64,000 bases of DNA from a virus, in the IMG/VR virus record IMGVR_UViG_3300025853_008930, positions 1 through 64,000 of that record, one strand, 5' to 3'. The notes beneath the pieces were generated by a model. The model was not told where the DNA came from and made no database searches. It was given only the letters and a program-made list of their open reading frames with translations. Below are positions 58,994 to 62,238 of this stretch, one piece after another. The translations under genes were made by a program, and so were the position numbers. Within the stretch, counting starts at the first letter, position 1, and every line of letters begins with the position of its first letter.

Positions 58994-59024
58994 CAGAATA
59001 TATATCTTCCATCAAGGAGTATGT

Positions 59025-59228
59025 GTCTAGCCGGCATAATAGACAAGAACAGACCGGAGTTAAGCGGCCTATCGGCTTAACACTATGGCCTAATGACGAG
59101 AGGAAACTTGGAATAGAGGTAAAGTGGCTAGAAAAACATGGCGATGGATATGAACGCCCGTATCTAACAAATCAAGTGTTTTTTGCAGGACTAGGGGATA
59201 TAGGCTCTCCCCTAGTCCAAGTTTTTTT
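59025..59228 (+). ncRNA. Cassette 2: putative ~200-nt structured RNA
   Basis: No self-contained ORF; stems TCTAGCC/GGCTAGA and GTTAAGC/GCTTAAC; 11-bp terminal hairpin plus T run. Confidence 0.5.
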
Positions 59229-60392: not shown

Positions 60393-60442
60393 GGTAAAAA
60401 AACCCCTTGTTTTTAGGAGCAAGGGGTTTTTACCTTTTTTTT
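60393..60442 (+). terminator. Hairpin/T-tract terminator
   Basis: AAAAACCCCTTG..CAAGGGGTTTTT followed by ACC and a T run. Confidence 0.8.
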
Positions 60443-60447
60443 ATTGA

Positions 60448-60512
60448 GGTTTGAGGTCGTTTTATACTTATTACTGTTAGTAACCTCAAACCATATGGTT
60501 CACTTTCGGAAC
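60448..60512 (+). repeat. Array repeat R5
   Basis: GGTTTGAGGT..ACCTCAAACC-ATAT-GGTTC-ACTTTCG-GAAC. Confidence 0.9.
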
Positions 60513-60544
60513 TCGGATTATATATCGAACAGGGTGGAGTATGC

Positions 60545-61023
60545 ATGTCGGGAGTCATGAACCGGCAGGGATTGACCGAACACCCTATTGAACGGGGGTA
60601 AGGTGCAATGTTCCGAGTAGTTTCGGCTTATGTAATTATGATGCTCTAATGAGTGAGTTTTTACCTCTAAGAAAAAGTCCTTGAACCTCAAAAGGGGAGT
60701 TATTACTAGTAACTTGGATAACATTGGCAGTATGGCTCTTAAGAATCAAAGAATCAAGAGAGCGTTCAAAGTGAGTGCGACCCAATCGTATCATACTTGA
60801 AGATACCCAACTCTTCATCCCATCCTATTCCAATGGCTATTAGTGGCCATAACACCATTGAGAAACAAAGGCGAAAGTCAAAGTTGAAAATGTAAGGCGG
60901 CAGAAAATAGAAAGAGATTGTAAGTTATCTAAATACTAGTTAGTTAGTGACCTCTCATCAAACCTACTAAGCATCACGCATTCCCTTGCTTTGAACGAGT
61001 AGCCGGAGTTTCTCACTTTTTTT
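60545..61023 (+). ncRNA. Cassette 5: putative ~480-nt structured RNA
   Basis: Bounded by promoter and T-tract; no + strand ORF of 60 aa or more; several stems including TGAGAAAC/GTTTCTCA and GGC-GAAA-GTC. Confidence 0.55.
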
Positions 61024-61100: not shown

Positions 61101-61174
61101 ACGGTTCTTATACCGAATCATAGGTAGTAGTCGCTTCAAGGGGTTGAAGTGTAATTATCATTGAGGTGAAAATT

Positions 61175-61651
61175 ATGAATTTGGAAAAACTAGAAACTAA
61201 TAGAAATAACATACGAACATGGATGAAGGAAAACGAAAGCCCGCTTAATGATGCTTTAGAGGGTCTACTCACAGCATCGGAGTTGGCTAAAACTGATGAT
61301 GAGGCGGTCAAGTATTGGTCGTCAATTCGTTCACTTTGTGGCAACATGAGTCCTTCTCCTGTTAGAAAAGGTGTGCAATCAAAATACAGTGTCGAGCAAT
61401 TGGCAGTATTAGACGCTATTGGAACAGAAGTTGATGAGGCTTCTGTCCGCTACCACAACGACGGTATTATGTCTAAGGTATTGTTTTCTCACGGTAAATC
61501 CGGTGGAAAAACTATGCTTGCAGAAGTATTTGGTAAGACTATGAGAAATATGACCATCAGCAAACTTAAGAAAAAGTTAGATGCAGGAATATGGGATGGA
61601 ACTCTAGCCGGTTTAGACTCCTTGACCGAAACAACGGAGGATAATGAGTGA
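61175..61651 (+). CDS. Cassette 6 protein, paralogue of 62460-62969
   Basis: YWSSIRSLCGNMSPSPVRKG...WDGTL; GAGGTGA RBS. Confidence 0.75.
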   Translation: MNLEKLETNRNNIRTWMKENESPLNDALEGLLTASELAKTDDEAVKYWSSIRSLCGNMSPSPVRKGVQSKYSVEQLAVLDAIGTEVDEASVRYHNDGIMSKVLFSHGKSGGKTMLAEVFGKTMRNMTISKLKKKLDAGIWDGTLAGLDSLTETTEDNE

Positions 61652-61890: not shown

Positions 61891-62238
61891 ATGCGAAAAA
61901 TAACACAAGACGCAATAAGAGCATTTGAACAGCATAAGAAATTTAAGCGAAGCAATACCGAAGTTGAAGTAAGTGGAAGCGGATTATTTGCCGAACTAAA
62001 ACTACATGGGAATACAATCGCCAAAAGTGGAATATTTGAAGGTTTGATGATTTCATCAGCCGGATGGAATACCAACACCACAAAAGAACGCTTAAACGGA
62101 TTTGATGGAGTTCACATCCATCAAAAAGACTTCACATGGTATTTGAATGGCCGTGAATGGACAGGCGAATGGGTTGATGTTGATGATTTCACCAAACACG
62201 GCCATTATTGTCAATTCGTTGGCGGAACATCATTCTAA
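61891..62238 (+). CDS. Cassette 7 hypothetical phage protein
   Basis: ATG 52 nt after the repeat ATAT; LHGNTIA...GWNTNTTKERLN. Confidence 0.7.
   Translation: MRKITQDAIRAFEQHKKFKRSNTEVEVSGSGLFAELKLHGNTIAKSGIFEGLMISSAGWNTNTTKERLNGFDGVHIHQKDFTWYLNGREWTGEWVDVDDFTKHGHYCQFVGGTSF

Follow-up and report, generated by a model that had tools for sequence, protein, structure and literature searches.

A putative stand-alone, two-domain non-coding RNA gene in a magrovirus

An 80,705-bp IMG/VR virus record contains, within its first 64,000 nucleotides (positions 1-64000, the whole stretch of DNA that was analysed and hereafter the window), a cassette devoid of any long open reading frame (60545-61023), which taken as a whole is best explained as a stand-alone magrovirus gene for a non-coding RNA of about 475 nt, composed of two domains and acting in trans; the probability of this reading is put at roughly three in four. 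As far as comparison of natural sequences can establish it, the cassette is non-coding, its structure is conserved and read from the + strand, it is built of two domains, the first with a manA-like architecture, and its distribution can be traced. Action in trans, as a stable viral RNA, is inferred, there being no data on function or expression. The preliminary description of this DNA had proposed a candidate large structured non-coding RNA, and the compensatory changes found in both halves, together with the lack of a conserved frame, bear the proposal out.

According to the proposed mechanism, the cassette would be transcribed from a TATA-type promoter, the same as that of the neighbouring small-protein cassettes, and would end at an oligo-T terminator, and the RNA would be made together with the products of those cassettes. 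Its two domains would fold independently, domain 1 (60546-60826) as a manA-type RNA, possibly ligand-binding and regarded as an optional accessory, and domain 2 (60827-61016, hereafter the core) with a clamp helix, P1, next to the terminator, with the hexamer UGGCCA presented by a short hairpin and ACUAGU by a long irregular one. The core would lie at the 3' end of transcription units, preceded either by an unrelated non-coding leader or by a small protein gene, and its invariant loops would serve as interaction sites.

The source virus and its cassette array

The nearest relatives of the portal protein belong to the haloarchaeal tailed viruses HVTV-1 and HCTV-5, an ATP-dependent DNA ligase is encoded inside the structural module, and the same record encodes, outside the window, a second ligase, a thermosome-type chaperonin, a ThiF-like protein and a TFIIB zinc ribbon protein. 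Portal affinity, the thermosome subunit, the two ATP-dependent ligases and the TFIIB zinc ribbon point to an archaeal virus, and the gene set agrees with what has been published on magrovirus group A, whose hosts are Marine Group II archaea (PMC5434244). Judged by its gene content, the source is a magrovirus, one of the tailed viruses of these archaea; of five tested records bearing the core, four have the same portal at 78-95% identity. In the surface ocean, few archaeal viruses are as abundant as magroviruses, none of which is known to be in culture. It follows from this source that the signals of the cassette are to be read as archaeal, namely as a TATA-type promoter and as a T-run serving as archaeal terminator. 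The phage setting suggested earlier, with GOLLD and ROOL as examples, does not apply, for the virus is archaeal and the RNA bears no relation to either family.

A further peculiarity of this genome is an extreme avoidance of palindromes. Over the 80,705 bp (window 1-64000 plus L135), ACGT, AGCT, CGCG and GATC do not occur at all (about 260, 260, 77 and 260 expected), GTAC occurs a single time, and 38 of the 64 palindromic hexamers are missing. CTAG, GGCC, CCGG, TGCA and CATG are not avoided, and the two invariant RNA palindromes of the core (UGGCCA and ACUAGU) are composed solely of tolerated tetramers.

The cassette belongs to an array. The 15-mer box CATATGGTTCACTTT is found in eight copies, all on the + strand and between 58399 and 63186 (0.28 expected), and it is absent from the rest of the genome. 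All eight cassette starts have a common layout, which comprises a T-run, an inverted repeat whose arms vary in sequence from junction to junction with their complementarity kept, the palindrome AACCATATGGTT and a TATA-like box 12-14 nt further on (Table 1). Start codons in the protein cassettes lie some 20-30 nt downstream of the TATA box, the distance expected for short-leader or leaderless archaeal mRNAs. The ORF-less cassette has its own copy of CATATGGTTCACTTT at 60492, then the TATA box TTATATAT (60518-60525) and, at its far end, a run of seven T (61017-61023), in agreement with the full promoter and T-tract reported earlier. Given that archaeal transcription usually begins about 25 nt downstream of the TATA box, a start near 60545 is inferred, without any measurement.

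Three features of the array are recorded here in their own right. The 12-bp perfect palindrome AACCATATGGTT, just upstream of the TATA box in 8/8 cassettes, looks like an operator for a dimeric regulator common to the whole array. A second cassette (59010-59228, + strand) has the same promoter, a GC hairpin with a T-run and no ORF above 19 codons, and possibly represents another non-coding RNA, some 215 nt long; its conservation extends to close relatives alone (93-96% in L048, L049 and L052), and covariation can thus not be judged. Finally, the 115-aa cassette gene p115 (61891-62238, + strand) matches the Pfam family Kyano_Gp96 (E 8e-18); by tblastn it is matched in 325 phage records, for the most part those of Synechococcus cyanophages and, in their early regions, of T7-like Pseudomonas phages, which makes it a member of a bacteriophage gene family residing in an archaeal virus and adjoining an RNA motif of cyanophage type.

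Table 1. Coordinates of the cassette, its signals and its proposed helices (positions in the window)
Feature	Position	Strand	Basis or remark
Cassette junction	60433..60500	+	includes T-run of preceding cassette; 8-junction comparison
Inverted-repeat arms, 10 bp	GGTTTGAGGT 60448-57 / ACCTCAAACC 60483-92	+	junction of cassette
Palindromic box AACCATATGGTT	60489-60500	+	junction of cassette
Promoter core: CACTTT, GGAAC, TATA box TTATATAT (60518-60525)	60501..60545	+	alignment of 8 junctions
5' domain, divergent manA-type RNA (putative)	60546..60826	+	RNAalifold on 5 homologues, Rfam manA model
18-codon ORF MSGVMNRQGLTEHPIERG	60546..60602	+	not conserved; within helices P1 to P2 of manA-type domain
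P1 hairpin of 5' domain	60546-51 / 60562-67	+	
Closing helix GGGAT / ATCCC	60568-72 / 60817-21	+	
Long-range helix CAATGTT / AACATTG	60606-12 / 60720-26	+	
Variable hairpin GAGTTATT / AGTAACTT	60697-704 / 60708-15	+	
Variable hairpin GCTCTT / GAGAGC	60735-40 / 60758-63	+	
Terminal hairpin GAAGA / TCTTC	60799-803 / 60812-16	+	
3' core domain, widely conserved unit	60827..61016	+	profile search, covariance model R1, covariation
Invariant AUUCC	60827-31	+	core
Pa: ATGG / CCAT	60833-36 / 60855-58	+	short hairpin enclosing invariant UGGCCA (60844-49)
P1	60859-66 / 61008-15	+	clamp helix adjoining terminator
P1b: GGC / GCC	60870-72 / 61002-04	+	core
P3	60877-83 / 60989-96	+	core; 3' strand CTTTGAAC
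P6: TAG / CTA	60908-10 / 60967-69	+	core
P4: GAGA / TCTC	60914-17 / 60953-56	+	core
P5	60924-32 / 60944-51	+	capped by invariant AUACUAGUU (60933-41)
Oligo-T terminator (T7)	61017..61023	+	directly 3' of P1 3' strand

Coding potential and structure of the two domains

A single ORF of 18 codons (MSGVMNRQGLTEHPIERG) stands at the start of the cassette and no long ORF follows on the + strand, as had been noted before; the longest + strand ORFs are of 18-39 codons. The frame of the 18-codon ORF is shifted by a 1-nt deletion in the relatives L048 (93% identical) and L049 (86%), its start ATG is missing in L064 and L074, a 75%-identical relative being among those without it, and on this comparison it is judged to be non-coding. 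All six frames of the cassette mix TAA, TAG and TGA; hence no single stop reassignment would open any of them, and an alternative genetic code was rejected (the standard code leaves the late genes of this genome open). On average, 3.6-6.0 stops occur in the + frames of the core (57 distinct copies), an open frame running through it in one lineage only (L037/L134, two near-identical sequences), and close relatives are separated by a frame-breaking 1-nt indel and by hairpin-loop indels of 9 nt or other lengths. With no conserved frame, with stops in every frame of the cassette and with frame-breaking indels between close relatives, neither a protein gene nor the frameshifted pseudogene named earlier as a possible refutation is supported. 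Neither a tRNA nor a tmRNA is present in the window.

The fold of the core is modelled as the invariant AUUCC, a short hairpin enclosing UGGCCA and a long irregular hairpin made of P1, P1b, P3, P6, P4 and P5. It was evaluated on an alignment made by MAFFT from sequence only (A3), which comprises 57 distinct copies (56 full-length ones and that of the window), the proposed structure having 36 pairs. Cells are paired in 85.8% of cases, against 73.6% in column shuffles (reached by 0/500) and 37-43% with the partners slid; changes on both sides of a pair amount to 229 cells, against 88 in shuffles, and the covariation score is 0.324, against 0.150 in shuffles (again reached by 0/500) and 0.05-0.10 with slid partners. 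In the model-fitted alignment, all seven pairs of P3 are compensated (96% of cells paired) and P1 has two compensated pairs in 10-14 sequences, appearing in other lineages as TGTGAAAC/GTTTCACA and AGTGAAAC/GTTTCACT, while the alignment of the apical helices P4 and P5 is poor between subtypes (59-77% of cells paired). Among the 25 well-aligned pairs, G-U cells number 58 and A-C cells 6, an excess which agrees with RNA of the + strand being the folding strand. The minimum folding energy is no better than that of shuffled sequence (z = -0.25 for the + strand, +0.77 for the - strand); the evidence for structure is comparative, not thermodynamic.

A decayed protein gene, or a site acting at the level of DNA (for instance an origin, a site of recombination or a palindrome bound by protein), could also be envisaged, since the invariant hexamers are DNA palindromes (TGGCCA and ACTAGT) and the cassette array is shuffled between genomes. 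Yet neither accounts for compensatory changes in helices whose strands lie 115-150 nt apart, for the strand-specific excess of G-U over A-C (58 vs 6) or for conservation without a frame over more than 60 diverged copies; moreover, each genome has a single core, whereas recombination junction repeats flank every cassette. The pseudogene and DNA-site readings are therefore close to excluded.

The stems listed in the preliminary description are all present in the sequence, and most of them withstand comparison. AGTTA/TAACT is compensated (TGCTAT/ATAGCA in L049, CATAAT/ATTATG in L074), and compensatory changes likewise back CTCTT/AAGAG, here extended to GCTCTT/GAGAGC, and the long-range helix TGAGAAAC/GTTTCTCA (60859-60866/61008-61015), which is P1. 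Two have to be amended. ATGGC/GCCAT is possible in 48/57 homologues and breaks in the other nine, three of its five pairs failing in a divergent clade in which the distal pairing is compensated; the shorter ATGG (60833-36)/CCAT (60855-58) holds in 57/57, with AU-for-GC swaps. The GNRA hairpin GGC-GAAA-GTC is outcompeted, given that GGC pairs better with GCC (61002-04) and GTCAAAG with CTTTGAAC (60989-96). As a separate observation, the last C-G pair of P1 (60866/61008, columns 54/246 of A3) is U/U in L012, L075 and L101, which represent two subtypes; this non-compensatory change may reflect a different register or a tertiary contact that involves the invariant AUUCC or GGAG.

About 60 positions of the core are invariant, the two loop motifs included. 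UGGCCA and ACUAGU are invariant across the core copies, are self-complementary (palindromic) and cap hairpins with covarying stems. In the best explanation they would be contact points, either for RNA-RNA kissing, i.e. self-association, or for a dimeric protein, an inference for which there are no binding data. Being invariant, the loops cannot be tested by covariation, and the idea of kissing or protein binding rests only on palindromy and invariance; besides, minimum-energy folds pair the ACUAGU palindrome with its flanks, and an alignment-free loop test could be scored in only 10/57 copies. It might be imagined that the core is a self-assembling module, in which each palindromic loop kisses the same loop of another molecule to form chains or rings made of RNA only and which would carry whatever lies upstream as cargo (the ligand-sensing manA-type domain, other RNA domains or an mRNA). 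This remains a speculative and rather doubtful reading.

As to the 5' domain, it is kept in three lineages only (L048/L049, L064 and L074/L092/L095). RNAalifold, run on five homologues, returns 84 pairs of which 16 are changed on both sides, and in the helix 60606-12/60720-26, which spans 115 nt, 6/7 pairs are compensated. Cells are paired in 98.1% of cases vs 41-44% with partners slid, a lenient control inasmuch as the structure is derived from the same alignment. These 16 compensated pairs, with the 229 both-side cells of the core (88 when shuffled), provide the covariation test of a homologue alignment that had been called for.

The Rfam scan suggested at the same time yielded no match over the core and a weak match of the 5' half to manA (RF01745). 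Two homologues score significantly against this model, L049 with 49.5 bits (E 1.1e-9) and L074 with 46.4 bits (E 9.4e-9); the other copies reach 23.1 (L048), 19.5 (L064) and 17.7 bits (window). Membership by the gathering cut-off of 55.2 bits is met by none of the five copies, though two E-values are near 1e-9. On L049 and L074 the model aligns end to end (positions 1-192) with the same helices, and every helix in the manA structure line, GGGAU/AUCCC included, is recovered by RNAalifold, which was run independently of the model. Significant scores of homologues and helix-for-helix agreement point to a divergent, insertion-rich relative of manA, and the 5' domain is here classified, on sequence and predicted structure, as a divergent, expanded manA-type RNA below the Rfam cut-off, that is, a sub-threshold relative. 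The earlier statement that no family can be assigned consequently stands for the 3' half, which has no Rfam match, and falls for the 5' half.

manA itself, an orphan riboswitch candidate, has been described as a 5'UTR element, presumed to be cis-regulatory; its range comprises marine metagenomes, T4-like cyanophages and a few gamma-proteobacteria, most published instances being unassigned marine DNA (PMC2864571), and as late as 2023 its role had not been verified (PMC9964418). In the cassette the 5'UTR location is not met, as the 190-nt core, the T7 terminator and a new promoter follow and the transcription unit holds no ORF. When five words of the 5' domain were looked for in the searchable files of PMC2864571, four proved absent, though gapped alignments could hide such words. 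Two variations within the L074 lineage may be added, namely some 150 nt inserted between the manA-type domain and the core (L074:3649-3800, - strand; also in L092) and a junction with ATTCATGGA in place of ATTCCAATGG.

Distribution and modularity of the 3' core

In a related virus contig (L009), the resemblance of an ORF-less cassette to the window is confined to its last ~200 nt. Exact-pattern scans with the core retrieved eight other IMG/VR contigs and 112 metagenome stretches, of which a profile search recognises 72 of the latter as true copies; in all, nhmmer finds the core in 79 loci (72 metagenome stretches and 7 virus contigs), corresponding to 56 distinct full-length copies, and these loci are almost all from marine samples. 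A covariance model, R1, built from the A3 structure, detects 62 copies in the loci at 90-230 bits and a single one in the 80.7-kb genome (224 bits). It finds no match in the 47 metagenome or virus loci that met only the search pattern, a control of specificity, and nothing real among 30 chance pattern matches from a scan of one genome per prokaryote species. GenBank phages contain no DNA match to the cassette.

What precedes the core differs greatly. In 22 of the 54 distinct upstream contexts, the promoter box lies 121-483 nt before it with no intervening ORF above 46 codons, in 13 a gene of 71-256 aa stands between box and core, and the remaining 19 come from lineages whose promoter is of another type. 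The ORF-less leaders are of at least three unrelated kinds, and most cores are without a detectable manA-type domain. Such varied contexts characterise the core as a portable 3' module, of which the manA-type domain is one of several partners.

The core itself is always the last element before the T-run or the next junction. A T-run of at least six follows P1 in most homologues, the exceptions (L012/L075, L121 and L042-L104) having CATGGGG or CATGAGG there. This position, the P1 3' strand abutting the U-run and the 13 contexts with a protein gene in front would suit an element acting in cis at the 3' end, which might protect against 3'-to-5' decay, determine how efficient termination at the U-run is or mark the transcript for processing; in that case the ORF-less cassette would amount to a manA-type RNA with the core as its tail. 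With respect to those 13 contexts, a cis-acting 3'UTR fits as well as the trans-acting RNA does, and the latter is further weakened by the lack of expression data and by the mere 17.7 bits that the window copy scores against manA. However, only one cassette per genome bears the core, the other seven of the array ending in plain GC hairpins and T-runs; nothing coding lies upstream in 22 contexts, whose leaders are mutually unrelated, and ~60 invariant positions with two loop motifs far exceed what a stabilising hairpin needs. An exclusive role in cis is thus considered unlikely, although it is the most serious competitor of the stand-alone RNA.

Much less probable is a riboswitch-type leader, whose manA-type domain would sense a ligand and, by way of the core with its T-run, control read-through into the WDGT-family gene downstream (61166-61651). 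It agrees with the description of manA as a 5'UTR element and riboswitch candidate (PMC2864571), and among the 46 loci with enough flank the first ORF after the core is indeed a WDGT-family gene in about 27. Nevertheless, a complete junction with its own TATA promoter intervenes between the T-run and that gene, which weakens this reading, the manA-type domain is undetectable in most cores, and the downstream neighbours vary, being otherwise p115 or proteins of 236-256 aa, 86 aa and 89 aa. Since two or three WDGT-family copies occur in an array of about nine cassettes, their adjacency to the core is roughly that given by chance.

Cassette order is shuffled between genomes and no fixed protein partner of the core was found. 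A specific link to the WDGT-family genes or to p115 was rejected on account of this shuffling and of the near-chance adjacency; for p115 as a core-specific partner, there is also the fact that the Kyano_Gp96 family is spread over many unrelated phages.

Novelty and relation to known RNAs

The core has no overlapping Rfam 15 match in the window, either at the gathering score or at E up to 10, and 28 other loci with diverse cores gave none at E up to 1 or 0.1. The Ocean-VI motif, which is known only from marine samples and is not in Rfam (Weinberg 2010), was compared through the invariant core 10-mer GUAGCCGGAG; this is absent from the first 200 of the 438 supplementary files of PMC2864571, Ocean-VI.sto among them, where gapped alignments could conceal it. 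Readings as RNase P, SRP, C/D-box, K-turn or bulge-helix-bulge RNA were judged by eye and dropped, having no model support. No paper describing this RNA was found in the literature searched, the bulk catalogue of IMG/VR candidate RNAs (PMC10690425) being outside the scope, and the searchable magrovirus literature makes no mention of a structured RNA.

A new conserved RNA domain known from 57 distinct copies provides enough natural variation for structure modelling and for the design of experiments, and it constitutes a natural example of a portable RNA domain fused to differing upstream cargoes. To my knowledge, this is the first evidence of a manA-type RNA in an archaeal virus, in a transcript without a gene to regulate, which bears on the unsolved question of what manA does. 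If the self-assembly of the core were true, archaeal viruses would have in this RNA their own counterpart to the multimeric ornate RNAs, and manA-type RNAs would be able to work outside 5'UTRs. As the RNA can be made in vitro, experiments on its fold, its oligomeric state and the binding of ligands do not depend on culture of the host.

Compared with manA, the helices of the 5' domain succeed one another in the same order (P1 hairpin, closing pairing GGGAN...NUCCC, ACC/GGU plus CCC/GGG stem with UAAGGUG, multi-stem insert, long stem and terminal hairpin), and the domain also shares conserved words such as GGGAnUGAC and UAAGGUG and a marine viral setting. The 5' domain differs in its score below the gathering cut-off and its large insertions, in residing in an archaeal virus and not in cyanophages or gamma-proteobacteria, and in its location outside a 5'UTR, followed by a second RNA domain and a terminator.

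The pRNA of phi29 and the dimerisation-initiation hairpins of retroviruses self-associate by loop-loop pairing. By analogy, the cassette encodes a putative viral RNA with invariant loops that could pair between molecules; the loops of pRNA are complementary to each other and not palindromic, and the pRNA model RF00044 has no match in the cassette. Unlike phi29 pRNA, the cassette RNA has no demonstrated link to packaging, and there are no data on multimerisation.

GOLLD, ROOL, HEARO and IMES are large or abundant structured RNAs of phages and marine metagenomes, the function of which is unknown, and none of them matches the cassette in Rfam even at E up to 10. What the cassette RNA has in common with them is to be large, virus-borne, ornate and ORF-less, with no function assigned and with evidence that is comparative only. 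It is set apart by its smaller size (~475 nt, with a core of 190 nt), by its archaeal-virus host and by its two-domain build with a portable 3' module.
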